The position numbers and the translations under genes are program-made. Shown here piece after piece: positions 2,369 through 60,655 of a DNA stretch of 64,000 nucleotides (position 1 is the first letter of the stretch; each line of letters begins with the position of its first letter). Under the pieces are notes generated by a model. That model was not told the DNA's origin. It did not search any database and saw only the letters and a list, made by a program, of their open reading frames with translations. The DNA is from Faecousia sp. (GTDB lineage Bacteria; Bacillota; Clostridia; Oscillospirales; Oscillospiraceae). Where the stretch lies: the NCBI GenBank assembly GCA_045612705.1, contig JAZKZN010000028.1, positions 1,287-65,286 of the forward strand. Direction: 5' to 3'.

Positions 2369-2932
2369 ATGGATTTTGCGGCAGAACTGACGAAGTTTTC
2401 TCGATTGGCAGAAGAAAAAAGATTTGTAAACAGTCTGGAAGGGAATCTTTCGGTAATAGATCGGGCAACAGGCAATATTTACATCACCCCGTCCCATAAG
2501 GCTAAGTGCTTTTTGACCCCGGAGCAGATCTGTGTCATTGCTCCTAACGGGGAGCAGATCAGCGGTACGGAGAAGAAATCCTCGGAATTCTATCTCCATC
2601 AGGCGGCCTACCAGGCGCGCCCCGACATCACCGCTGTGATACATTGTCACACGCCTTATTTGACCGCATATGCCTTGGCATACCGGGATTTTGTCCCTCG
2701 CAAGGATTCCTTCTTATACCAGATCTTCGGCACGATCCAATGCCTGCCCTTCGGAGAGCATGGCACGCACGCCATTCATCAAGGCATCGAGGATGCGCTG
2801 CGGGGGCGTCCGGTGGCGCTTCTGGGCGGCCACGGCGTGGTGTGTGTCGGCGCGGATCTGGAGGATGCGATAGGGCTGATGGAAGCGGCGGAAAATTATG
2901 CCAAGTCCCTTTGGATCCAGAGCAGATTATAA
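2369..2932 (+). CDS. Class II aldolase/adducin family (fuculose-1-phosphate aldolase-like)
   Basis: EGNLS, YITPS, SSEFYLH, HCH and GGHG zinc ligands; GGAGG RBS. Confidence 0.85.
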   Translation: MDFAAELTKFSRLAEEKRFVNSLEGNLSVIDRATGNIYITPSHKAKCFLTPEQICVIAPNGEQISGTEKKSSEFYLHQAAYQARPDITAVIHCHTPYLTAYALAYRDFVPRKDSFLYQIFGTIQCLPFGEHGTHAIHQGIEDALRGRPVALLGGHGVVCVGADLEDAIGLMEAAENYAKSLWIQSRL

Positions 2933-2975
2933 ACTCACTTATCTGCGCTTAGGATGATAAAAGGTACGTAGTTTG

Positions 2976-3007
2976 AAAAGAGGCGGTCCGGGGACCGCCT
3001 CTTTTTT
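2976..3007. terminator. Bidirectional intrinsic terminator
   Basis: aaaagaggcggtc-cggg-gaccgcctctttt. Confidence 0.85.
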
Positions 3008-3017
3008 GTTTGGGAAA

Positions 3018-4826
3018 TTAGTATGCCTTGTACATAGGACCGTAGGCAGCGCAAGCACGGTAGTCTGCGCCTTCCTTGTCCATACCGAAGGCATTCCAGC
3101 AAGCAGGACGGAAGATGTCCTCCTCGGGAACGTTGTGCATGCATACAGGGATACGCAGCATAGAGCACAGGGTGATCAGGTCAGCGCCGATGTGACCATA
3201 GGAGATAGCGCCGTGGTTAGCACCCCAGTTGTTCATGACCTCGTAAGCGGTCTTGAAGGGGGAGCCATCCTTGCCGTCGCAGCGAGGAGCAAACCAAGTG
3301 CAGGGCCAGGTGGGGTCGGTACGCATCATCAGAGTCTTGGTGACATCGTCGGGCAGCTGCACAGTCCAGCCTTCTGCGATCTGCAGAACGGGGCCCAGAC
3401 CCTTAACCAGATTCAGACGGATCATGGTAGCGGGCATATCAGCACGGGTGGTGAAGGAGGAGGAGAATCCGCCGCCACGGAAGTAGCCGTTGTCGGCTGC
3501 GGGCCAGGTGGTAGCATCGCACATCTTCTTGATATCCTCGTCGGTGACTTCCCACCACTTCTTCATAATGCCGTTGCCGTTCTCATCCTTGCATTCGCCG
3601 CAAGCGTCCAGAGCAGTAGCGCCGGAGTTGATCAGGTGAATGAAGCCGCCATTTTCCTTAGCCTTGCCTTCGACCTTGTAGCCGGAAGCACGCTCACAAG
3701 CCTCGGGAGACCAGTAAGTACGCACGTCGGAGAACATTTGAGCGCGGTTGGTCAGAAGCTTCATGAACAGCATGCCCAGACCGTTCAGAACGTCGTTCTC
3801 GGTAGCCAGGATGTAGGGCTCGCGAGCACCGTTGTGGTCGAAGGTGGAGTTCAGCAGAGCTTCAGGGAAGTCGCAGTTGGGATAGAAGTCAGTCCACTGA
3901 CGCTGACCCTGGAAGCCGCCGGCGATAGCGTTGTGGCCAACCATCTCTTCCTCGCAACCTGCGGGCAGGTTGGGGTTGCCGTTGAACATATCCTTGATGA
4001 TGCAGTACATCTTAGCCAGGAAGTCCCACTGCTCAGCCTTCTTCTCGTCGGAGGTCTTAACGAAGTCGGGGTTCTTGTCCCAGCCCTCCTTGCAGTTTTC
4101 CTTGATCCAAGCCTTGGCACGAGCAACTTCTTCGTGATCGTAGATGCCTTCGGACATTCGACGGATGATTTCTACCTCGTCAACGGATTCAACACGCATG
4201 CCCAGGTAGGACTCGATGAATGCGGGGTCGATAATAGAACCGCCGATACCCATGCAGATGGAGCCGATCTGCAGGTAGGACTTGCCACGCATAGTTGCAA
4301 CAGCAACAGCGGCGCGGGCGAAGCGCAGCAGCTTCTCCTGTACGTCAGCGGGAATGTTGGTGACCTCGTCCAGATTCTGAACGTCGTGACCATAGATGCC
4401 GAAAGCGGGCAGACCCTTCTGTGCGTGGCTAGCCAGAACGGAAGCCAGGTACACAGCGCCGGGACGCTCAGTGCCGTTGAAGCCCCATACGCCCTTGATG
4501 GTCTGGGGATCCATATCCATAGTTTCGGAGCCGTAGCACCAGCAGGGAGTGACAGTCAGGGTGATGTCAACGCCATTCTTCTTGAACTTTTCAGCGCAGG
4601 CAGCAGCTTCTGCTACGCGGCCGATGGTGGTGTCAGCGATGATGACCTTAACGGGCTCGCCGTTGGAGTACTGCAGATTTTCTTCGAACAGCTTCTTAGC
4701 GGCCTGAGCCATTGCCATGGTCTGGTCTTCCAGGCTCTCACGAACCTTCAGAGGTCCGCGGCGGCCGTCGATGGTGGGGCGAATACCGATTACGGGGTAA
4801 TCACCGACGTATCTGTTTTTTGCCAT
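3018..4826 (-). CDS. fucI: L-fucose (D-arabinose) isomerase
   Basis: [47 protein letters not shown]; 602 aa. Confidence 0.96.
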
Positions 4827-4919
4827 TGTAATTTCCTCCTAATTTCTCGCCGCAAAACGCGGGCATAGTTTACAATATCATATAACGCGTGCGCGCTACA
4901 TACGAAAGCATAGTCTCTT

Positions 4920-5897
4920 TCACAGAGAGATGCGGCATTTTAGCCGGGTGACCCGGGGCTCGCCGTCGTAGCCGTCCAGCCGTTCCAGCAGGAACTTGGC
5001 TGCGGTGGCGCCGATCAGATGGTCCGGCTGCTGCACGACAGGCAGGGGAGGCTTCATCATAGAGCATGTCTCCACACTGTCAAAACCGAAGACGTCTACA
5101 TCCTCGGGAATCCGCAGACCCCGTTCACGGGCAGCGGTGATAAAACCAAGGGTAATGTCATAGTTGGTGGTAAACACCGCAGTGGGAGGGTTGTCCCGGA
5201 GCATCAGATGCTCGCAACCCCGATAGCCGGTGGCAAAGTCATTGCCGCCGCTGAATACCAGACCGTCATCGTAAAGAATACCGGCGTCAGACAGGGCGCG
5301 AAGATAGCCTACCATACGCTCTTTCGCTGTATACACGGACTTGGGACCGGTGATAATGGCGATCCGCTGGTGTCCGCTGCTGATCAAACGGTTGACAGCC
5401 TCATAAACAATTTCGGAATTATCTACCAGCACAGCATCAATGTTTGCGCCCGAGATATCCCGGTCAATCAGCACGATGGGAATGCCGCAGTTGGCAGTAA
5501 GCTCCTTAAACTCGTCGTGAGACAGATCTTCGGGGGCATACACCAGTCCGTCAACACCGCAGGTGAGAATAAACTTCAGATTATCCCGCTCCATACCGTG
5601 ATTTGCGCCATAGCTGGAGATCAGACAGTGGTAATCCCGTTCCCGCATAGTCCGGGCCATAGACATCACTACATTCCCGAAGAAAGGGGCGGTCATATCC
5701 GGCAGAAGAATGCCTACAGAACGATTGCGCTGGCTTTTCAGGCCTCGGGCAAAAGGGTCGGCGTGGTAATCCAAAGCCTCAATGGCTTTGCGAATGGCTT
5801 CCGCGTTTTCTTTCCGAACATTGCCACCGTTCATAAATTTCGATATTGTGGAGGGCGCAACACCGGCCATCAAGGCCACATCTTTAATTGTTGCCAT
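4920..5897 (-). CDS. LacI family transcriptional regulator
   Basis: N-terminal ATIKDVALMAGVAPSTIS HTH plus a periplasmic-binding-type domain; ATG chosen from the upstream GGGGGTG RBS. Confidence 0.92.
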   Translation of the reverse strand: MATIKDVALMAGVAPSTISKFMNGGNVRKENAEAIRKAIEALDYHADPFARGLKSQRNRSVGILLPDMTAPFFGNVVMSMARTMRERDYHCLISSYGANHGMERDNLKFILTCGVDGLVYAPEDLSHDEFKELTANCGIPIVLIDRDISGANIDAVLVDNSEIVYEAVNRLISSGHQRIAIITGPKSVYTAKERMVGYLRALSDAGILYDDGLVFSGGNDFATGYRGCEHLMLRDNPPTAVFTTNYDITLGFITAARERGLRIPEDVDVFGFDSVETCSMMKPPLPVVQQPDHLIGATAAKFLLERLDGYDGEPRVTRLKCRISL

Positions 5898-5921
5898 AGC
5901 CACACCCCCCTAAATCTTGCT

Positions 5922-5938
5922 AAAAACGAATCGTTTCG
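5922..5938. promoter_or_regulatory. Putative LacI operator O1
   Basis: aaaaacgaatcgtttcg, a pseudo-palindrome (AAACGA-A-TCGTTT); exact reverse-complement copy at 6102-6118. Confidence 0.7.
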
Positions 5939-6024
5939 CGATGTGTCGACCGTAGGACGACATTTGTTTTCTTTATAATATAAAAAGATTTTTGTACTGT
6001 CAATACAAAAGTTGAAAAAAACTA

Positions 6025-6053
6025 TTGATTTTTTTGGCAAAGTTTATTATAAT
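6025..6053 (+). promoter_or_regulatory. sigmaA promoter for the sugar ABC operon
   Basis: TTGATT-N17-TATAAT. Confidence 0.6.
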
Positions 6054-6101
6054 AACTCCGTAAGCGCGTTTGAAGCCGGTCTGCAGGTAATAGTAAATAA
6101 A

Positions 6102-6118
6102 CGAAACGATTCGTTTTT
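6102..6118. promoter_or_regulatory. Putative LacI operator O2
   Basis: cgaaacgattcgttttt, the reverse complement of O1. Confidence 0.7.
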
Positions 6119-6281
6119 GTGCAACTTGCAACAAAGCGGCACAAATTGGCAATTTTCCCCTCTTGCGCAGTCTCCGTACAATTTATATATATTGTACACA
6201 AAGGTGGGACATCGGCCGTTCCGAGGACGAAGTTTTGCGTCTGCGATCTACAATTAATGATTAAGAAAGGTGAAGTTTGGA

Positions 6282-7781
6282 ATGGGTGAAACGATTCTGA
6301 AAATGCAAGGCATTCAGAAGTATTTCTCCGGCGTTCACGCTCTTAAGGGCGTTGATTTCGAATTGAGAGCCGGCGAAGTTCATGCGCTGATGGGCGAAAA
6401 TGGTGCCGGCAAGTCCACGTTGATTAAAGTTCTCTGTGGCATACATAAGAAAGACGGCGGCTCAATTGAGTATTTCGGCGAGAATGTGGAGTTTGGCAAC
6501 ATCGCTGAATCTCAGGCAGCCGGCATTAGCGTCATTCACCAGGAGCTGAATATGATGAACCACCTGACGGTGGCTCAGAATATGTTCATTGGCCGTGAGT
6601 TTATGAACGCCGGTTTCATCAACGACAAGAAGATGGAAGAAGAGGCGCAGCAGCTGTTCGACAAGATGGGCGTAAAGATCAATCCCTCTGTGAAGCTGGG
6701 CGACCTGACTGTTGGTAAGCAGCAGATGGTTGAGATCGCAAAGGCCGTCTCCCGCGACTGCAAGCTGCTGGTTCTGGACGAGCCTACTGCGGCACTGACA
6801 CTGCCTGAAGTTGAGGAACTGTTCAACATCATGCGCGACCTTCAGAAGAAGGGCATCGGTATGATTTACATCTCCCACCGTATGGACGAGATCAACCGCA
6901 TTTCCGACCGCGTGACCGTTATGCGTGACGGCGAATATGTCGGCACGGTGAACACTGCGGAAGTGACCAAGGACGACATCGTGAAGATGATGGTCGGCCG
7001 TGTGATCATGGGTGAGCAGAAGGCCTGTAGCAATTGCCCCGCAGATGCCGATATCCTCCTGGAGGTTAAGAACCTGAACGCCGGCCGTGAAGTCAAGAAT
7101 GTGAGCTTCACCCTGCGCAGGGGCGAGATCCTGGGCTTTGCAGGTTTGATGGGCGCTGGTCGTACGGAAGTTGCCCGAGCTCTTTACGGCGCTGATCCTC
7201 GTCAGACCGGTGAGATCATCCTCAAAGGCAAGAAGGTGAAGATCAGAACCCCCGAGCAGGCTGTTAAGAATGGCATCTGCTACCTGTCCGAAGACCGTAA
7301 GCGCTACGGCCTGATGCTGGACAAGTCCGTTGCTGAAAACACTACCATCTCCTCTGTGGATTCCTTTATTACCGCAGGTCTTATCAGCGATACCAAGATG
7401 CGCAGGGCTTCTGCTGAGTTCAATGAAAAGCTGCGCACCAAAACTCCTTCTATGGAGCAGTTGCTGAAGAACCTGTCCGGCGGCAACCAGCAAAAGGTTA
7501 TCATCGCCCGTTGGCTGATGAAGAACGCTGACATCTTTATTTTTGACGAGCCTACCCGCGGCATTGACGTGGGCGCTAAGAGTGAGATCTACCGCCTGAT
7601 GGAAGAATTGGTAGAACAGGGTAAATCCATCATTATGATTTCTTCCGAATTGCCCGAAGTCCTGCGTATGAGTGACCGGATCCTGGTTATGTGCGAAGGC
7701 CGTAAGACCGGCGAACTGGACATCTCCGAGGCAACCCAGGAGAAAATTATGCAACTTGCTACAATGCGAGAGGAGAATTAA
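6282..7781 (+). CDS. Monosaccharide ABC transporter ATP-binding protein (RbsA/MglA type, two NBDs)
   Basis: GENGAGKST, LDEPT, LSGGNQQK, DEPTRGIDVGAK. Confidence 0.95.
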   Translation: MGETILKMQGIQKYFSGVHALKGVDFELRAGEVHALMGENGAGKSTLIKVLCGIHKKDGGSIEYFGENVEFGNIAESQAAGISVIHQELNMMNHLTVAQNMFIGREFMNAGFINDKKMEEEAQQLFDKMGVKINPSVKLGDLTVGKQQMVEIAKAVSRDCKLLVLDEPTAALTLPEVEELFNIMRDLQKKGIGMIYISHRMDEINRISDRVTVMRDGEYVGTVNTAEVTKDDIVKMMVGRVIMGEQKACSNCPADADILLEVKNLNAGREVKNVSFTLRRGEILGFAGLMGAGRTEVARALYGADPRQTGEIILKGKKVKIRTPEQAVKNGICYLSEDRKRYGLMLDKSVAENTTISSVDSFITAGLISDTKMRRASAEFNEKLRTKTPSMEQLLKNLSGGNQQKVIIARWLMKNADIFIFDEPTRGIDVGAKSEIYRLMEELVEQGKSIIMISSELPEVLRMSDRILVMCEGRKTGELDISEATQEKIMQLATMREEN

Positions 7782-7783
7782 TT

Positions 7784-8854
7784 ATGAGCAAAAATAAGAA
7801 CCTTGCCTCCAAGAATGTGATGGCAGGCGGCAAGCAGAGCATCGTGATCATCTTTGCTGCAATTATCCTGTTTGCAGTCTTCTACCTCATCAACCCCGGC
7901 TTCGCCAGCAGCGGCAACCTGCTGACCATGGCTAAGTCCTTCGTGCCCTACGCAATCCTGTCCCTGGGCGTCACTTTTGTTATCGCCACCGGCGGTATCG
8001 ACCTGTCCATTGGTACTGTATGTATCGGCTCCGCTGTTCTGGCAGGTGCTATTTGCAGAACCGGCGTTTCCCTGGAAGACGGTGTCCTGTGGGCAACCAT
8101 TCCCATCATCATTGTCACCGGCCTGTGCTTCGGCCTGATCAACGGCCTGCTGGTTGCTAAGTGCAAGATCGCACCCTTCATTGCAACCCTGGGTACGATG
8201 CTGGTATCCCGCGGTCTGACCGCAGTTATCTCTGAGGCGATTCGTAAGACCTCTTCCGCTGTTAAGTACCCCACTACTGGTTGGTTCCAGAAGCTGTTCA
8301 CCAACCTGAACGGTTTCCCCATCGGCATCCTGTGGGTGCTGGGCCTGACTGTGATCTGCATGATCGTGATGTACAAGACCAAGGTCGGCCGCTATATCCT
8401 GGCTATCGGCTCCAACGAAGAAGCTGCCCGCCTGTCCGGTATCAACACTGACAAGTATAAGATCATTGCTTACGCTATCTGCGGCGCTTTCGCAGGTATG
8501 GCTGCTCTGTTCTATGTGGCTTCCAACCCCTCTCTGACCATCGCAGCCGGCAACGGCATGGAACTGGACGCTGTCGCAGGCGTGTACATTGGCGGCACTT
8601 CCACCACTGGTGGTTCCGCTTCCGTCATCGGCTCCCTGCTGGGCTCCCTGATTCTGGTTGTTATTCGCCAGGGCCTGAACATCGCTCTGAGCAGCGGCAG
8701 CGTGGTTTCCGCAACCAACATCACCTACGCTGTCACCGGTGTGATTGTTGTTGGCGCTGTTATGCTGGACGTTCTGAAGAAGAAGTCCGCTGCTAAGGTT
8801 AAGATTCCTGTTGCTACCGAAAAGAAGCCCCAGGAAACCGAAACCAAGGCTTAA
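7784..8854 (+). CDS. Monosaccharide ABC transporter permease (RbsC type)
   Basis: GGIDLSIG, PFIATLG, GSNEEAARLSGI, ELDAVAG. Confidence 0.95.
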   Translation: MSKNKNLASKNVMAGGKQSIVIIFAAIILFAVFYLINPGFASSGNLLTMAKSFVPYAILSLGVTFVIATGGIDLSIGTVCIGSAVLAGAICRTGVSLEDGVLWATIPIIIVTGLCFGLINGLLVAKCKIAPFIATLGTMLVSRGLTAVISEAIRKTSSAVKYPTTGWFQKLFTNLNGFPIGILWVLGLTVICMIVMYKTKVGRYILAIGSNEEAARLSGINTDKYKIIAYAICGAFAGMAALFYVASNPSLTIAAGNGMELDAVAGVYIGGTSTTGGSASVIGSLLGSLILVVIRQGLNIALSSGSVVSATNITYAVTGVIVVGAVMLDVLKKKSAAKVKIPVATEKKPQETETKA

Positions 8855-55461: not shown

Positions 55462-56955
55462 ATGGCTAACTTTGTACCGCAGGCAGAGCTGCCTGTATCA
55501 GAGCAGGCTCAGATCCGCCGGGACAAGCTGGCGGCACTGCAGGCCGAAGGCCGCGACCCTTTTGTGCAGACTAAGTTTGATTTCAATGCAGACTCTGCCG
55601 GAATTAAGGCTGATTACGAAGGCTATGAGGGCAAGACCGTCCGCGTGGCCGGCCGCTTGATGAGCAAGCGCGGACAGGGCAAGGTTATGTTCTGCGATCT
55701 GCAGGACAGCACCGGCCGCATCCAGTTGTTTGTGAAGATCGACGAGCTTGGAGAAGAGGAGTACAATCGCTTCAAGAAGAACGATATTGGTGACATTTTG
55801 GGCGTGGAAGGTGAGGTCTTCAAGACTAAGACCGAGGAGATCTCCGTCCGGGCAAAGTCTGTCACACTGCTGTCCAAGTCCCTGCTGCCTCTGCCGGAAA
55901 AGTACCACGGTCTGACCGATAAGGAAATGCGTTTTCGTCAGAGATATGTGGATTTGATGGTGAATCCCGAAGTGAAGCAGAACTTCGTGATCCGCTCCAA
56001 GTTCATCAAGTTCATGCGCAACTATCTGGACAATATGAATTACATCGAGGTAGAGACCCCGGTGCTGAATACCATCGCCGGCGGCGCATCTGCCCGTCCT
56101 TTTATCACGCACCACAACACCCTGGACATTGATATGTATATGCGAATCGCCACCGAACTGCCTCTGAAGCGGCTGATCATCGGTGGTATGGACAGAGTGT
56201 ATGAGATCGGCCGTATCTTCCGTAATGAGGGTATGGATCCCAAGCATAACCCTGAGTTCACCTCTGTGGAGCTGTACCAGGCTTATGCGGATTTCCACGA
56301 TATGATGGATATTGCCGAGGGCATCATCTCCGGCGCTGCCAAGGAGATCCTGGGTACCTACGAAGTGGAGTGGATGGGCGAAAAGATCAATCTGGCTCCC
56401 GGCTGGCGCCGTATGACTATGGTGGAAGCTGTTAAGGAGTATGTGGGCATTGATTTCGGTGCAATTACCGATGATGCAGAGGCTGTTGCCGCTGCCAATG
56501 CCAAGGGTGTGGAACTGGCCGATGCCGCAGAAAAGACCTGGGGCAACGCTCTGTACGCCTGCTTCGATCAGCGGGTGGAGGAGCATCTGATCCAGCCTAC
56601 CTTCATCACAATGTACCCTGTTGAGGTCAGTCCTCTGACCAAGCGCAGCCCCTTGGACAGCCGCCTTACCGAGCGCTTCGAGCTGTTTATCTGCCACAGT
56701 GAGTTGGCCAACGCCTACTCCGAGCTGAACGACCCCATTGATCAGAGAGGCCGTTTCATGAAGCAGGTGGAGCAGCGTGAGCGCGGTGATGACGAGACCG
56801 AGATGCTGGACGAGGATTTCCTCACTGCTATGGAATACGGTATGCCTCCTACGGGTGGTATGGGCATTGGCATTGACCGCTGCGTTATGCTCCTGACTGG
56901 CAATGACACCATCCGCGAAGTCATCCTGTTCCCCACGATGAAGCCGTTGGACTAA
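55462..56955 (+). CDS. lysS: Lysine--tRNA ligase (class II)
   Basis: RQRYVDL, GGASARPF, FRNEGMD, YGMPPTGGMGIGIDR, VILFPTMKPLD. Confidence 0.97.
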   Translation: MANFVPQAELPVSEQAQIRRDKLAALQAEGRDPFVQTKFDFNADSAGIKADYEGYEGKTVRVAGRLMSKRGQGKVMFCDLQDSTGRIQLFVKIDELGEEEYNRFKKNDIGDILGVEGEVFKTKTEEISVRAKSVTLLSKSLLPLPEKYHGLTDKEMRFRQRYVDLMVNPEVKQNFVIRSKFIKFMRNYLDNMNYIEVETPVLNTIAGGASARPFITHHNTLDIDMYMRIATELPLKRLIIGGMDRVYEIGRIFRNEGMDPKHNPEFTSVELYQAYADFHDMMDIAEGIISGAAKEILGTYEVEWMGEKINLAPGWRRMTMVEAVKEYVGIDFGAITDDAEAVAAANAKGVELADAAEKTWGNALYACFDQRVEEHLIQPTFITMYPVEVSPLTKRSPLDSRLTERFELFICHSELANAYSELNDPIDQRGRFMKQVEQRERGDDETEMLDEDFLTAMEYGMPPTGGMGIGIDRCVMLLTGNDTIREVILFPTMKPLD

Positions 56956-56962
56956 AAATTTT

Positions 56963-56990
56963 AACACCCTATGGCAAATGCCATAGGGTG
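56963..56990. terminator. Terminator after the current lysS end
   Basis: acaccctatggc-aaat-gccatagggtgt. Confidence 0.85.
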
Positions 56991-57031
56991 TGTTTTATGT
57001 TATTAAACTGACCGACAAATTGGAATTTATT

Positions 57032-57349
57032 TCACTCGGAGAGGTCTTTGGCCATGACATGTTCAACGATTCCGTTGTCGTCGTAATAGACTATAACGTG
57101 TTTGTTTTTTTCGCTTACTAATTGCCAAATTTCACCCCAGAAGCCAGAAAGCTGACCGTCGGGTTCTCCCCAAGCATCCAATATGTCTTCTCGTGAAATA
57201 CCAATGAGTTTTTCGCCCAATTCCTCTTGGCTGCATTCGTTGACTTTTTCTAATGGTAAAATTTGTTTATTTGCATCTTCCTTTGTGTTACATGCACATA
57301 GACCAAGTACACAGACCAACGCTAAAACTAATGCTATCAACTTTTTCAT
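57032..57349 (-). CDS. Small lipoprotein (cassette 1 cargo)
   Basis: Lipoprotein signal MKKLIALVLALVCVLGLCAC; AAAGGAG RBS; AT-rich. Confidence 0.75.
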   Translation of the reverse strand: MKKLIALVLALVCVLGLCACNTKEDANKQILPLEKVNECSQEELGEKLIGISREDILDAWGEPDGQLSGFWGEIWQLVSEKNKHVIVYYDDNGIVEHVMAKDLSE

Positions 57350-57407
57350 ACAATCCCGCTCCTTTCTCAAATTCTTATTTATCGACCTAACTGCATTATA
57401 CCATTGC

Positions 57408-57436
57408 ATTATACCATATATCTTTCAAAACCGCAA
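57408..57436 (-). promoter_or_regulatory. sigmaA promoter for cassette 1 gene
   Basis: Minus strand TTGCGG-N17-TATAAT with extended TG. Confidence 0.65.
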
Positions 57437-57451
57437 TGTTTTGTAAAAATA

Positions 57452-57640
57452 TGAGTTTTGGGCCATTTTTAGACCATTTCAGAGGTATGATATATCCCGA
57501 AAAAGCAAGTTGAGGTAAGATAATTTTTGGGGTAAAAACGGTGTGCTTTTAGTGGGTAAGAAAAAGCACAAAAAAGCAAGATTAGGTAAGATATTTGCCG
57601 AGGCGATTTTAAGCCCTTTCATACTCCCCACGATGAAGCC
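57452..57640 (+). repeat. 189-bp direct repeat, copy 1 (att arm plus lysS-end core)
   Basis: Matches 58359-58547 with 7 mismatches by my count; internal AAAAAGCAAG-N3-AGGTAAGATA pair. Confidence 0.95.
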
Positions 57641-57654
57641 GTTAGATTAAAATG

Positions 57655-57688
57655 AAAGGACTATGACCGAAAAGTCATAGTCCTTTTT
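57655..57688. terminator. Terminator after lysS-end copy 1
   Basis: aaaggactatgac-cgaaaa-gtcatagtccttt. Confidence 0.85.
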
Positions 57689-57700
57689 GTTTGTAAAAAA

Positions 57701-58291
57701 TTAGATGGCACCCATTTCTTTCATTGCATTGATATATGTATCTGCTTCTCCGTTGGGGTTGGCTTGTTGGGTTGCCTCGATATCATACCAAGCACACTCA
57801 AGACCGTGAATGATGATAGGGAGTGGCTTTTTGAATTGGTTTTTAATAAAGCCTTCTTCTTGCAGTTTCTTGGCAACATTGGCGGCAACTCCAAGCAATT
57901 CATAATGACCGACAGGTCCCTTGCCGATGTAGTTGTAATCTTCATCATACATATTATCCATATCTTCAAAGCCTATGTTTTCAATGCCTTGCTCTGCATA
58001 CCATTTATACAAGGTTTCGGTGCATTCGTTAGGCTCGTCAATGTCAATTATGCTTGTTTCGTCCTGTCTCCAAAAAGCATAGTTCCATCTTTCTTCATCA
58101 AGTGGGCCTGCTCCCTCACAATCTGCCTCAGTGTTGTAACTTATTGCCCAAGTTGATACATTAGTGAAGTTTTTAAACTCGTATGCCTCGTTGGAATATA
58201 TAAAAAACGAAATGGCATAAATGCCATCCTCATTCCATTGGGATATTTCATATTTGACTTTTTCATACAAAATATGTTCAATATCAATCAT
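57701..58291 (-). CDS. Acidic hypothetical protein, possibly DUF4303/immunity-like (cassette 2 cargo)
   Basis: 196 aa, GGAGG RBS, YAISF...YNTE...ERWNYAFW; the family assignment is tentative. Confidence 0.65.
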   Translation of the reverse strand: MIDIEHILYEKVKYEISQWNEDGIYAISFFIYSNEAYEFKNFTNVSTWAISYNTEADCEGAGPLDEERWNYAFWRQDETSIIDIDEPNECTETLYKWYAEQGIENIGFEDMDNMYDEDYNYIGKGPVGHYELLGVAANVAKKLQEEGFIKNQFKKPLPIIIHGLECAWYDIEATQQANPNGEADTYINAMKEMGAI

Positions 58292-58321
58292 ATTATAACC
58301 TCCGTAATACTTGGCAACTTT

Positions 58322-58350
58322 ATTATATCACAAACCACTCAAAACAGCAA
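58322..58350 (-). promoter_or_regulatory. sigmaA promoter for cassette 2 gene
   Basis: Minus strand TTGCTG-N17-TATAAT. Confidence 0.65.
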
Positions 58351-58358
58351 CATTATAT

Positions 58359-58547
58359 TGAGTTTTGGGCCATTTTTAGACCATTTCAGACGTATGATAT
58401 ATCCCGAAAAAGTAAGTTGAGGTAAGATAATTTTTAGGGTAAAAACGGTGTGCTTTTAGTGGGTAAGAACAATCACAAAAAAGCAAGATTAGGCAAGATA
58501 TTTGCCGAGGCGATTTTAAGCCCTTTCATACTCCCCACAATGAAGCC
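58359..58547 (+). repeat. 189-bp direct repeat, copy 2
   Basis: 907 bp downstream of copy 1. Confidence 0.95.
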
Positions 58548-58565
58548 CCTTGCAGAGTAATATTA

Positions 58566-58603
58566 AGCCGAAAACGCCTATTTCAATGCGTTTTCGGCTT
58601 TTT
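58566..58603 (+). terminator. Terminator after lysS-end copy 2
   Basis: aagccgaaaacgc...gcgttttcggctt followed by a T-run. Confidence 0.8.
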
Positions 58604-58633
58604 GTTTATCCAAATTATTGCTTAAAAATGTGG

Positions 58634-58703
58634 TTTGCGACAGATTTACGACGAATGAGCAGGTCAACAGTCCTTGGAAATTACGACAATAAGGTGTCGC
58701 AAA
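58634..58703. repeat. Cluster of TT(A/G)CGAC(A/G) arm-type repeats, left end of cassette 3
   Basis: tttgcgaca 58634, tttacgacg 58645, ttacgaca 58681, inverted tgtcgcaaa 58695. Confidence 0.7.
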
Positions 58704-58833
58704 CGTAGCCTTAACAATGTACCAACAGAATTGCCGCTTACATATGAAATAGAACCGAATAGATGAAAAATAAGATTTTTCATAATTGAAATGCTATAAT
58801 TCAGTAAACACATTTACTGAAAGGACAGATTGT

Positions 58834-59562
58834 ATGTATGCCATAAGGACTGCTAATCTAACTAAAAAATATAAGGATACAGTTGCGGTAGACCAATTAA
58901 ATTTGCAGGTTAAAAAAGGCGAATTGTTTTCTCTGCTCGGTGTAAATGGTGCCGGTAAAACGACAACAATTAAAATGCTGTCCTGTCTTGCACAACCTAC
59001 AGGCGGAGATGCCTTTCTTAACGGAAAAAGCATTTGCAAAGATACAGCCGCTGTAAAATCGCTAATTGCCGTTTCTCCGCAGGAAACTGCGGTCGCATCC
59101 GGACTTTCGGTTCGGGAGAATCTTGAGCTGATGTGCGGGGTTCACGGCTTTACAAAAGACAAGCAAAATATGAAAATTGCAGAACTGACCGAACGACTCG
59201 GACTTAAATCTGTTATGAAGAAAAAGGCAGGTAAACTGTCGGGTGGTTGGCAACGCAGACTGAGTATTGCCATGGCACTGATCAGCGAACCGGAGATATT
59301 GTTTCTTGACGAGCCAACGCTTGGTCTTGATGTACTTGCCCGAAGCGACTTGTGGGATTTGATACGTTCTCTTAAAGGGAAGGTTACCATTATTCTGACT
59401 ACGCACTATATGGAAGAAGCGGAAGCGCTCTCTGATCGTATCGCGATTATGAAAGAGGGAAAACTACTGATTTGTGATACTGCTGATAAGATAAAAGAAG
59501 CGGCAGGTACGGACAGTTTTGAGCAAGCCTTTGTGCGTATTGTTAAGGGGGTGGCAGAATGA
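58834..59562 (+). CDS. ABC-2 type exporter ATP-binding protein (cassette 3 cargo)
   Basis: GVNGAGKTT, LSGGWQRR, LDEPTLGLD, TTHYMEEAE. Confidence 0.92.
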   Translation: MYAIRTANLTKKYKDTVAVDQLNLQVKKGELFSLLGVNGAGKTTTIKMLSCLAQPTGGDAFLNGKSICKDTAAVKSLIAVSPQETAVASGLSVRENLELMCGVHGFTKDKQNMKIAELTERLGLKSVMKKKAGKLSGGWQRRLSIAMALISEPEILFLDEPTLGLDVLARSDLWDLIRSLKGKVTIILTTHYMEEAEALSDRIAIMKEGKLLICDTADKIKEAAGTDSFEQAFVRIVKGVAE

Positions 59563-60287
59563 GAATGCTGATATTTGCAAATAGAAACACAAAAGAAATA
59601 TTACGGGATCCGTTGAATTTGTTCTTTGGGCTCGGTTTTCCACTCGTTCTGATGCTATTGCTCAGTGCTATACAAGCAAATATCCCAGTAGAGCTGTTTG
59701 AAATACAACACCTGACTCCGGGTATAACCGTTTTCGGTTTGGCATTTGTGACATTGTTTTCTGCAACCATTATCGCAAAAGACAGAGGTAGTTCATTGCT
59801 TCAGCGTTTATATACCACGCCACTTACTCCAATGGATTTCATTCTCGGTTATACGCTGCCTATTATTCCAGTTTCTGTCGCTCAATGCGCTATCTGCTAT
59901 ATTGCGGCAATCTTTCTTGGCCTAAATATTAAGGTAAATATTTTATATGCTGTCGTATTCATTATACCTGTATCCATTCTCTACATTGCGTTAGGACTCC
60001 TTTGCGGAAGTGTATTGAATGATAAGCAGGTAGGCGGGATTTGTGGTGCTTTGCTTACCAACCTTTCAGCATGGTTGTCTGGCATTTGGTTTGATCTTGA
60101 CCTTGTAGGAGGTGCTTTCAAGAAGATAGCATACACACTTCCGTTTGTTCACGCAGTAGAGATGGAACGTGCGGTGCTCGCAGGAGATTATTCAGCAGTT
60201 TTCCCTCATCTTTGGTGGGTGCTTGGATATGCCGCTATTCTGCTCGTGTTAGCGGTGCTGCTATTCTTGCGACAAATGAAGAAATAG
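59559..60287 (+). CDS. ABC-2 type exporter permease (cassette 3 cargo)
   Basis: LRDP, six TM segments, LSGIWF; ATGA overlap with the ATPase. Confidence 0.88.
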   Translation: MRMLIFANRNTKEILRDPLNLFFGLGFPLVLMLLLSAIQANIPVELFEIQHLTPGITVFGLAFVTLFSATIIAKDRGSSLLQRLYTTPLTPMDFILGYTLPIIPVSVAQCAICYIAAIFLGLNIKVNILYAVVFIIPVSILYIALGLLCGSVLNDKQVGGICGALLTNLSAWLSGIWFDLDLVGGAFKKIAYTLPFVHAVEMERAVLAGDYSAVFPHLWWVLGYAAILLVLAVLLFLRQMKK

Positions 60288-60346
60288 TATTTATATAGTT
60301 TAGGGGATATGTATTTCTTTGTTGGACAATGAAAACGCCCTCGTTT

Positions 60347-60387
60347 TTTACGACAATTCTTACGACAAACCCAATAAAGTTATGACA
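60347..60387. repeat. Cluster of TTA(C/T)GACA arm-type repeats, right end of cassette 3
   Basis: tttacgaca 60347, cttacgaca 60359, gttatgaca 60379. Confidence 0.7.
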
Positions 60388-60485
60388 TTCTATGTGAGGT
60401 TATGTACTTTAATGAAAACGGGTTGGATTAACGAAGTCAGGAAATGAGAGGTTAAATCAATGTATAAGACATACTCAGTGGAAAT

Positions 60486-60510
60486 CCCCAGGATGAAGCC
60501 GTTGGATTGA
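60486..60510 (+). repeat. Fourth lysS-end copy (probable displaced original 3' end, attR)
   Basis: ccccaggatgaagccgttggattga reads P-R-M-K-P-L-D-stop; hairpin gcccctg...caggggc follows. Confidence 0.8.
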
Positions 60511-60655
60511 TGTGAATTACGCCCCTGCGTATCATGAATACACAGGGGCATTTTCGTATAAGTATGCAAAAAGAAAGACGTAGTTTCTGGTCCGTCAAGA
60601 CCCTTGCGAAAAGTAAAGTGTTGTGGTAAACTGAAAGAAAAAGGAGGTGGCTTTG

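Follow-up and report, generated by a model that had tools for sequence, protein, structure and literature searches.

A conserved 189-nt arm marks small single-gene cassettes at the 3' end of lysS in Faecousia sp. and other gut Clostridia

The 64,000-nt stretch of the Faecousia sp. genome considered here (assembly GCA_045612705.1, contig JAZKZN010000028.1, positions 1,287 to 65,286 of the forward strand; the window) contains lysS, encoding a class II lysyl-tRNA synthetase, and directly after it 3.55 kb of AT-rich DNA (GC content of 0.31-0.46, versus 0.50-0.58 across lysS). Copies of the last 16-26 nt of lysS split this 3.55-kb stretch into three units: two small cassettes, each with a single cargo gene and a conserved non-coding arm, and a third unit with two ABC transporter genes (Table 1). 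The core shared by the lysS-end copies, TCCCCACRATGAAGCC, occurs four times in the window (at 56930, 57625, 58532 and 60485) against 0 expected, and has no further occurrence in the rest of the 1.69-Mb genome. Related loci and genomes are labelled with L- and G-numbers, respectively; many of them are metagenome-assembled genomes (MAGs).

Table 1. Positions of the features at the lysS locus, in window coordinates (ORF, open reading frame).
Feature	Position	Strand	Basis
lysS, class II lysyl-tRNA synthetase	55462-56955	+	Pfam tRNA-synt_2, E=3.6e-91; OB fold
First core copy, final 26 nt of lysS; present attL-type junction	56930-56955	+	core match
Cassette 1, 695 bp: terminator, ORF, promoter, arm, core copy	56956-57650		sequence reading; GC 0.34-0.44
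Putative two-way terminator, class a, ACACCCTATGGC...GCCATAGGGTGT, for both lysS and cargo 1	56964-56991		predicted hairpin
Cargo 1, 105-aa lipoprotein (MKKLIALVLALVCVLGLCAC...), no Pfam family	57032-57349	-	Pfam, clustering
Putative cargo-1 promoter: TTGCGG (57436-57431), 17 nt, TATAAT (57413-57408), TGGTATAAT, extended -10	57408-57436	-	sequence; kept in family
Arm copy 1	57452-57624	+	repeat comparison, 31-copy alignment, motif counts
Core copy 2, lysS-end copy, TAA at end	57625-57650	+	core match
Cassette 2, 910 bp; core-to-core homologous (82%) to cassette L108 (Acutalibacteraceae MAG)	57651-58560		pairwise comparison
Putative two-way terminator, class b, AAAGGACTATGACCGAAAAGTCATAGTCCTTT	57654-57687		predicted hairpin
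Cargo 2, 196-aa protein (P0002), no Pfam family	57701-58291	-	Pfam; DUF4303-like by language-model features
Putative cargo-2 promoter: TTGCTG (58350-58345), 17 nt, TATAAT (58327-58322), TGATATAAT, TGn before -10	58322-58350	-	sequence; kept in family
Arm copy 2, 96.5% identical to copy 1	58359-58531	+	repeat comparison
Core copy 3, right part variant (…KPLAE*), contributed by next unit	58532-58560	+	core match
Unit 3, 1950 bp: ABC ATPase and ABC-2 permease, both plus strand	58561-60510		Pfam; core matches
Displaced original lysS end, closes unit 3	60485-60510	+	core match

The two cassettes share a direct repeat of 189 nt (57452-57640 and 58359-58547) with 7 mismatches (96% identity), and their cargo genes are unrelated, as the original prediction for this locus had stated. 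The repeat is composed of the 173-bp arm and the left half of the 16-nt core. The first arm copy contains the direct repeats TGGGCCATTT/TAGACCATTT at 57458-57479, AGGTATGATA at 57483-57492, and AGGTAAGATA at both 57513-57522 and 57584-57593, with GGGTAAAAA and GGGTAAGAA also present. The paired motif AAAAAGCAAG-N3-AGGTAAGATA that had been predicted is indeed found at 57500-57522 and 57571-57593, together with the GGTAA-type motifs and with TTCAT (57618-57622) and ATGAA (57633-57637), which are inverted about ACTCCCCACG. The sequence AGGYAAGATA occurs four times in the 64-kb window, in each case within one of the two arms, against 0.09 expected occurrences. The repeat blocks of the arm consist of GRCCATTT, present two to three times at a spacing of 11-12 bp, and four GGTAA motifs, which read TTACC on the opposite strand.

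Alignment of 31 arm copies (199 columns) revealed 64 invariant columns and 56 more that are at least 90% conserved, i.e. 120 of 199, and these are grouped in blocks separated by freely varying spacers. The blocks (T)GGGCCATTT and TAGACCATTT form direct repeats spaced by 11-12 bp, of which L127 has three copies. Further blocks are CAGAGGTATGATATGT, AAAGGTAAnTTGAGGTAAGATAATTTTT, GGGTAAAAA, GGGYARGAAAAA and AAAAAGCAAGATKAGGTAAGATATTT, and about 20 freely varying positions precede the last one, TTTCATACTCCCCACRATGAAGCC. No copy has a gap in the alignment between the second AGGTAAGATA site and the core. Such a block pattern is expected of protein-binding sites positioned relative to a crossover site, and this is what the alignment suggests for the arm.

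The same repeats could in principle constitute a regulatory region, with operators or upstream activating sites that serve the divergent cargo promoter, or the arm could be a small RNA gene. The position of the arm directly upstream of the -35 element of the cargo promoter and the phasing of its direct repeats at 11-12 bp, which is reminiscent of response-regulator sites, are in line with the first possibility. However, the arm is retained whole and at the same place in cassettes that lack a minus-strand promoter or carry plus-strand cargo (L146, G412/L122, L117/L127, L138), and the gap-free stretch between arm and core is likewise at odds with a merely regulatory function. A small RNA or riboswitch was rejected, as the arm has no Rfam match, folds no better than shuffled sequences (z-scores of +0.5 and -1.0), and yields a consensus structure of -2.1 kcal/mol with 0 compensatory pairs and no covariation. 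A small protein encoded in the arm was rejected as well: the minus-strand frame of 47-50 codons is broken by indels of 1-2 nt among the copies, which excludes a reading frame. A regulatory or RNA-coding arm is therefore considered improbable.

The frame around the cargo follows a standard order, consisting of a lysS-end copy, a two-way terminator, one ORF (rarely two or three), a ribosome-binding site, a TGnTATAAT promoter, the arm and a further lysS-end copy. The similar minus-strand promoters with 17-nt spacing described in the original prediction are present at both cassettes of the window and have an extended -10 element. In the family, a TTGCAG-like hexamer (TTGCNG), 17 nt and TGnTATAAT are located at a fixed distance left of the arm in about 21 of about 30 cassettes, followed downstream by a short leader, which includes a Shine-Dalgarno sequence, and by the start codon. 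The cargo promoters escaped a consensus scanner, since their -35 hexamer agrees with the consensus at only three of six positions. Upstream of cargo 1, a 12-bp tandem duplication (tgcattatacca, two copies, 57392-57416) creates a second -10 box at 57395-57400, such that two TATAAT boxes lie 13 nt apart. At the other end of the cargo, the stop codon is found 0-16 nt from a hairpin that directly follows the preceding lysS-end copy, in agreement with the prediction that the terminator is supplied from there. The class a hairpin also occurs at the left end of L119, L142, L110 and L125, and the class b hairpin is 92-97% identical in L118, L128, L131, L132, L108 and L165. Judged from sequence, these elements probably serve as promoters and two-way terminators. 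The concept of a standardised chassis with a swappable gene is borne out by the conservation of promoter, leader, terminator and arm around different ORFs.

The left ends of the cassettes can be divided into four classes: class a (ACACCCTATGRC...), class b (AAAGGACTATGACCGAAAAGTCATAGTCC), class c with a third hairpin type (L117, L127), and class d, whose left end is longer and contains two TTTACGACA repeats (L100, L126, L130, L143, both cassettes of G424 and, in diverged form, G412). Classes a and b have the inner palindrome CTATGAC-N-GTCATAG in common. The earlier proposal that the end opposite the arm is devoid of such repeats is correct for AGGTAAGATA, but it overlooks this palindrome and the TTTACGACA repeats of about seven relatives; similarly, the confinement of all arm sites to one side applies to the two window units, but not to the family as a whole. 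In one class of the frame, an imperfect inverted repeat of about 24 nt, AAACTGACCGACAAATTGGAATTT/AAATTCTTATTTATCGACCTAACTGC, brackets the cargo ORF (57005-57028 and 57369-57394 in the window) and flanks unrelated ORFs in L100, L143 and L119, while its left half is also found in L125, L138 and L146. Through this repeat, the 3' trailer of the mRNA could pair with the 5' leader; alternatively, the repeat could be a mark of the site at which ORFs are exchanged.

Both cargo genes of the window are encoded opposite to lysS and are unrelated to each other. Clustering of the ORFs in front of the arms gave 16 groups, corresponding to about 16-17 unrelated families, and thus the search of Clostridia genomes for the arm and its adjacent genes returned the many single cargo families that a cassette system should display. 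The assignment of cargo 1 to a cluster of NTF2-like lipoproteins was rejected; since it joins this group through its signal peptide only, it is counted as a family of its own. Each unit contains one to three small ORFs. Few of the cargo proteins are recognised by Pfam, namely a TPR protein, a hexapeptide acyltransferase and Zn-ribbon proteins, and the remainder are lipoproteins or small membrane or cytoplasmic proteins without family. The larger cassette of G412 encodes a NadR-like regulator and an energy-coupling factor (ECF) S-component. A domain search of the cassette cargo detected no recombinase or relaxase domain in the cassette ORFs.

More than 1000 homologues of cargo 2 exist outside cassettes, some of them in RHS toxin-immunity arrays. 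In 80 metagenome loci with such homologues, including human-gut contigs, similarity ends at the ORF limits, and even the nearest extra-cassette homologues, at 85% nucleotide identity, share the ORF alone. As no arm, core or hairpin was detected in these 80 loci, the idea that cargo 2 travels together with the arm was rejected. On two human gut metagenome contigs (L047/L048, approximately 2534-8600), the gene for an RHS protein containing a Tox-REase-9 toxin domain precedes an array of small ORFs, including those for an Imm-NTF2-2 lipoprotein (homologous to the L098 cargo), a Zn-ribbon protein (homologous to the L123 and L130 cargo), a DUF5071 protein and a cargo-2 homologue; thus, three cassette cargo families have relatives in one toxin-immunity array. 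The window cargo has no direct match to any Pfam immunity family; a role of such cargo as orphan immunity genes would fit these relationships.

Comparison of cassettes between genomes defines their borders. L117 and L127 are 91.6% identical over 876 bp, from the first base of the left core to the last base of the right core, and their flanks differ on both sides; on the left, one has lysS and the other has the P-arm of an integrase element. Homology between window cassette 2 and L108 (82.4% over 949 bp) likewise ends at the cores. The cassette is thus a unit bounded at two lysS-end copies. Within this unit, the ORF alone can be exchanged, as observed for L118, L131, L132 and window cassette 2: a left homology of 92-94% covers the core and hairpin b, and reaches a few bases into the stop end of the ORF where the ORF abuts the hairpin, while the onset of a right homology of about 80% varies from a few bases within the start codon to about 30 nt before it. 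The DNA between both is unrelated, and the non-homologous part corresponds to the ORF within about 10 nt. In the same way, window cassette 1 and L119 have lysS, hairpin a, a 24-nt trailer, promoter and arm in common, and differ in the ORFs in between.

For the same genome pairs, cassette identity exceeds that of lysS, with 82% versus 70% and 88% versus 80%, and the arm of L118 is 89% identical to that of the window, whereas lysS is only 64% identical in DNA (58% in protein). Since the cassettes are more alike than the adjacent essential gene, they move between hosts, including distant ones. Arm and cargo also reassort, as the ORFs of cassette 2 and L108 are 86% identical and their arms 74%. 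The window arms are closest to L146 (94%), whose host is closely related to that of the window; the 96% likeness between the two window arms would be accounted for by local homogenisation or by a recent source that they have in common.

The distribution of the arm was determined by scanning one genome per species (185,579 species genomes) with a 23-nt site pattern, complemented by BLAST. The scan matched 49 loci, 29 of which contain a full-length arm with 76-91% identity, and a family search added two carriers, G575 and G716. Including the window genome, the arm is therefore present in at least 32 species-level genomes (the window genome and 31 others), a set that rests on an exact-match scan in which diverged arms, including those of a possible integrase-linked parent, may be missed. 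The carriers belong to Acutalibacteraceae, Faecousia, Candidatus Fimenecus, Fumia, Oscillospiraceae and other Oscillospirales or Clostridia MAGs from animal guts, many of them from goats, sheep, cattle and buffalo. BLAST of 400 genomes of the window's family found 0 further carriers and lysS ends only, while 4 of 401 genomes in the family around L132's genome carry the arm, including L132's genome itself and one already known; in both family searches only two first-look candidates per genome were scored. Four genomes of the same genus have a single lysS end and no cassette, but their downstream genes differ, so that an exact empty site could not be demonstrated.

In all loci with enough flanking sequence, 0.45-1.2 kb (in G412, 2.2 kb) separate the arm from the preceding lysS end or core copy, and at every locus whose flanks can be seen it abuts another core copy, always in the same orientation. 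The arm of each of these loci thus lies between two lysS-end copies, and among the copies found none is demonstrably located away from lysS, so the arm is neither specific to this genome nor unlinked to lysS ends. One arm per genome was counted in 25 of 27 carriers and two in tandem in G424 and the window genome; G428 has a second, partial copy at a contig end. In G424 (Faecousia sp., locus L171, 949-3466, reverse strand), both tandem cassettes have the TTTACGACA-type left end, and the second holds two genes of 165 and 164 aa.

Being non-coding, AT-rich, repeated, about 190 bp long and present in many genomes, the arm could also be taken for the end of an insertion sequence (IS) or a miniature inverted-repeat transposable element (MITE) with a preference for this locus. 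Yet the copies are single or in tandem rather than scattered, their orientation and neighbour are constant, terminal inverted repeats are lacking, no target-site duplication exists besides the lysS-end copy, and no transposase is encoded nearby, which makes such an origin very improbable. A phage or plasmid origin was rejected: no arm match was obtained in 50,697 phage records or 72,556 plasmids, and three probes against IMG/VR gave only chance matches inside coding DNA.

The reading preferred here, with a probability of roughly 0.6, is that the arm represents the P-arm of non-autonomous att cassettes that are moved in trans by a recombinase. The locus has the layout of attL/attR junctions as they remain after insertion of a tyrosine-integrase element into a gene end. 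Each cassette would be a miniature non-autonomous integrative element that entered the lysS 3' end via site-specific recombination of the tyrosine-integrase type. Its circular form would consist of about 300 bp of conserved DNA and one ORF, the conserved part comprising the extended -10 promoter, a short leader, the 173-bp arm, the 16-nt core, a replacement lysS end with stop codon, and the two-way terminator. The 189-bp repeat would correspond to the P-arm side of attP, now part of an attR-type junction, and its direct-repeat blocks are most likely bound by accessory proteins and by the arm-binding domain of an integrase. The recombinase would act in trans, or in cis once an integrase-bearing element has landed next to the cassette. 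The right part of each core and the DNA after it would belong to the unit on its right. Since the newest unit goes next to lysS and the displaced original lysS end closes unit 3, the order of arrival was unit 3, cassette 2 and cassette 1. The two arm cassettes consequently came last, and they did so without an integrase of their own.

Elements with a Tn916-type integrase (PF02920 and PF00589) are present at this site in some relatives, where they are inserted between lysS and the arm cassette (L110, L127, L142, G412). Between the integrase stop codon and the core, these elements contain repeats that differ from element to element (TTTACCA four times, TACGCCA three times, TTTACCCC twice). The four GGTAA motifs of the arm, read on the other strand as TTACC(T/C), are of the same flavour as the sites of the integrase elements. 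The integrative and mobilizable element (IME) of G412 is complete (13.3 kb); besides its Tn916-type integrase it encodes a MobV relaxase, and each of its arms contains TTTACCCC repeats. The array of this genome (L163+L170, contig C25, reverse strand) contains, in order, lysS, the 13.3-kb IME, a 2.4-kb arm-ended cassette, a 2.1-kb unit and the displaced lysS end.

Several findings weigh against movement of the cassettes in trans. No integrase adjoins any of the approximately 34 arm copies, and of 29 arm-bearing genomes only four have a Tn916-type integrase, the window genome (87% complete) not being among them. No arm-motif cluster was found near any of the seven tyrosine recombinase genes of the window genome, the TTACC-type motifs of the arm are oriented opposite to those in the P-arms of the integrase elements, and most carriers hold a single cassette, such that active accumulation is not evident. 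The seven tyrosine recombinase genes include none at lysS and none with a Tn916-type N-terminal domain, and as arm-motif clusters do not occur elsewhere, a cognate integrase within the own genome was rejected. An integrase common to the carrier genomes was also rejected because of the limited occurrence of PF02920. Binning of MAGs often drops mobile elements, and for this reason the absence of an integrase is weak evidence.

The main competing explanation, which is considered unlikely, assumes that the cassettes are dead remnants of larger lysS-integrating elements, comparable to cis-mobilizable elements (CIMEs), that no longer move by site-specific recombination. Their arms would be alike by descent and would have spread with flanking DNA via homologous recombination, with later replacement of the cargo. 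The rarity of integrases in the carrier genomes and the single cassette in most of them agree with such remnants, as does the occurrence of deletion hybrids: L167 (1090-1666) fuses the left end of a G412-like IME, with its left arm and first small gene, to an arm that has lost its first 26 nt. This hybrid illustrates random decay at the lysS site, and its layout differs from that of the regular cassettes. The unequal identities of cargo and arm between cassette 2 and L108, together with the close likeness of the window arms, require homologous exchange or conversion, which also speaks for this explanation. On the other hand, random deletion would not give more than 30 cassettes with the same tight architecture around about 16-17 ORFs, and this uniformity argues against an origin by random deletion from an IME or an integrative and conjugative element (ICE). 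A parent element with the arm beside an integrase was not found among the approximately 34 copies, and homology stops exactly at the cores in different surroundings. Moreover, the arm cassettes of the window are nearer to lysS than the ABC unit, indicating a later arrival without own integrase, while in streptococci the elements showing most decay are those at the greatest distance from the target gene (PMC7563491).

ICE integrases of streptococci are known to target the lysS 3' end (PMC4701971), and CIMEs and microCIMEs of the ICESt1/ICESt3 family accrete in tandem at the 3' ends of housekeeping genes in streptococci (PMC7563491, PMC5704250; on CIMEs see also Pavlovic et al. 2004, as cited therein). 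By their flanks and gene content, the lysS cassettes fall within the definition of CIMEs. They lack integrase, relaxase and coupling-protein genes, share with CIMEs the carriage of adaptive cargo, and are enclosed by direct repeats of a conserved gene's 3' end (attL/attR), both in the window and in every relative whose flanks are visible. They also occur in tandem with IMEs that use the same site, and both accretion, as seen from the IMEs between lysS and cassette in L110, L127, L142 and G412, and deletion (L167, G412) are in evidence. Described CIMEs, in contrast, are assorted remnants of deletion, 1.2-13 kb in size, or 130-220-bp pieces without genes, and lie farthest from the target gene (PMC7563491, PMC5704250). 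The lysS cassettes adjoin their target gene, have no parent element with the same arm among about 34 copies, and present one conserved arm-promoter-terminator frame around about 16-17 ORFs cut to ORF precision, in 32 genomes from at least two families.

Resemblance to integrons lies in the small, mostly single-ORF units with little spare DNA that are arranged in tandem at one site, in a diverse cargo mostly of unknown function, and in the ORF-precise packaging. Integrons rely on the IntI integrase, an attI site, the Pc promoter and attC sites, imperfect inverted repeats that fold as single-stranded hairpins, and their cassettes are usually promoterless. In contrast, the lysS array has no adjacent integrase, attI or common Pc among the surrounding genes that were checked, each cassette possesses its own predicted promoter and terminator, and arrays comprise only one to three units. 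Instead of an attC hairpin, a 173-bp arm of direct repeats without consensus fold is combined with a gene-end core. The rAID-1 clusters (recombinase-associated acquired interbacterial defence) of Bacteroidales consist of co-directional genes with a gene for a XerD-like recombinase at the head (bioRxiv 10.1101/471110). Common to both are low-GC arrays in gut bacteria with a repeated intergenic sequence, and the lysS cargo may likewise include orphan immunity genes, but the lysS array, from a different phylum, has no head recombinase and its cargo is encoded opposite to lysS. The cassettes thus resemble integrons and rAID-1 in their logic, but lack the defining features of both.

With the attP arms of lambda and Tn916, the cassettes share clusters of short repeats 40-170 bp from the core, with arm sites and spacing kept in 31 copies, and the replacement of a gene end, here that of the lysS target; they differ in that no integrase gene is linked and in that repeat sequence and orientation deviate from those of the neighbouring integrase elements. 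Small gene modules between recombination sites, with the recombinase encoded elsewhere, are also represented by the pdif modules of Acinetobacter plasmids and by integrative mobile elements exploiting Xer recombination (IMEX). Both use 28-bp Xer/dif-like sites, whereas in the lysS cassettes a long, complex arm is joined to a gene end.

It is already known that integrase-less islands accrete in tandem at gene ends, and integron-like immunity arrays are known as well. A full-text literature search retrieved no description of one frame of about 300 bp that carries many unrelated single ORFs with their own promoters at one chromosomal site in many species. If mobile, the cassettes would constitute a simple means of gene flow, defined by sequence, between gut and rumen Clostridia that have received little study, a natural design for expression cassettes in these organisms, and a second system in which to ask how ORF-sized cassettes arise. 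A far-reaching and tentative extension, unlikely to hold in full, is that they form a Gram-positive counterpart of integrons: a gene-capture platform at the lysS end, in which a dedicated cassette-making mechanism would place single ORFs in a promoter-RBS-terminator-att frame, precise to a few bases at start and stop codon, distant gut Clostridia would exchange them by way of a recombinase encoded elsewhere, and much of the cargo would provide orphan immunity against contact-dependent toxins. In practical terms, the arm is a useful probe, as one 23-nt pattern recovered the family from 185,579 genomes, making the cataloguing of cargo at scale possible.

The remaining features of the locus concern its surroundings and unit 3. 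LysS of the window is 90-92% identical to three Faecousia records, and the genes around the array comprise lysS, a greA-like gene, and genes for a metallophosphoesterase and an FGGY kinase. The latter two lie downstream of unit 3, together with an arabinose-isomerase-like gene, and no recombinase gene is present among the genes downstream of the array. The displaced lysS end reads CCC AGG ATG, in which AGG replaces ACG (Thr to Arg), and stops with TGA; the GC-rich hairpin that follows it at 60524-60548 is probably the native lysS terminator. The variant core end preceding unit 3 (…KPLAE*) is also found before cas3-like left ends in L112, L132 and G412. Unit 3 contains TTACGACAA, and TTACGAC(A/G)A repeats occur near both of its ends (58646, 58681, 60348, 60360). 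The pair of ABC ATPase and ABC-2 permease follows an arm cassette in seven loci (the window, L099, L108, L110, L112, L130 and L132), and the left end of unit 3 is 93.6% identical to that of L112 over 235 nt.

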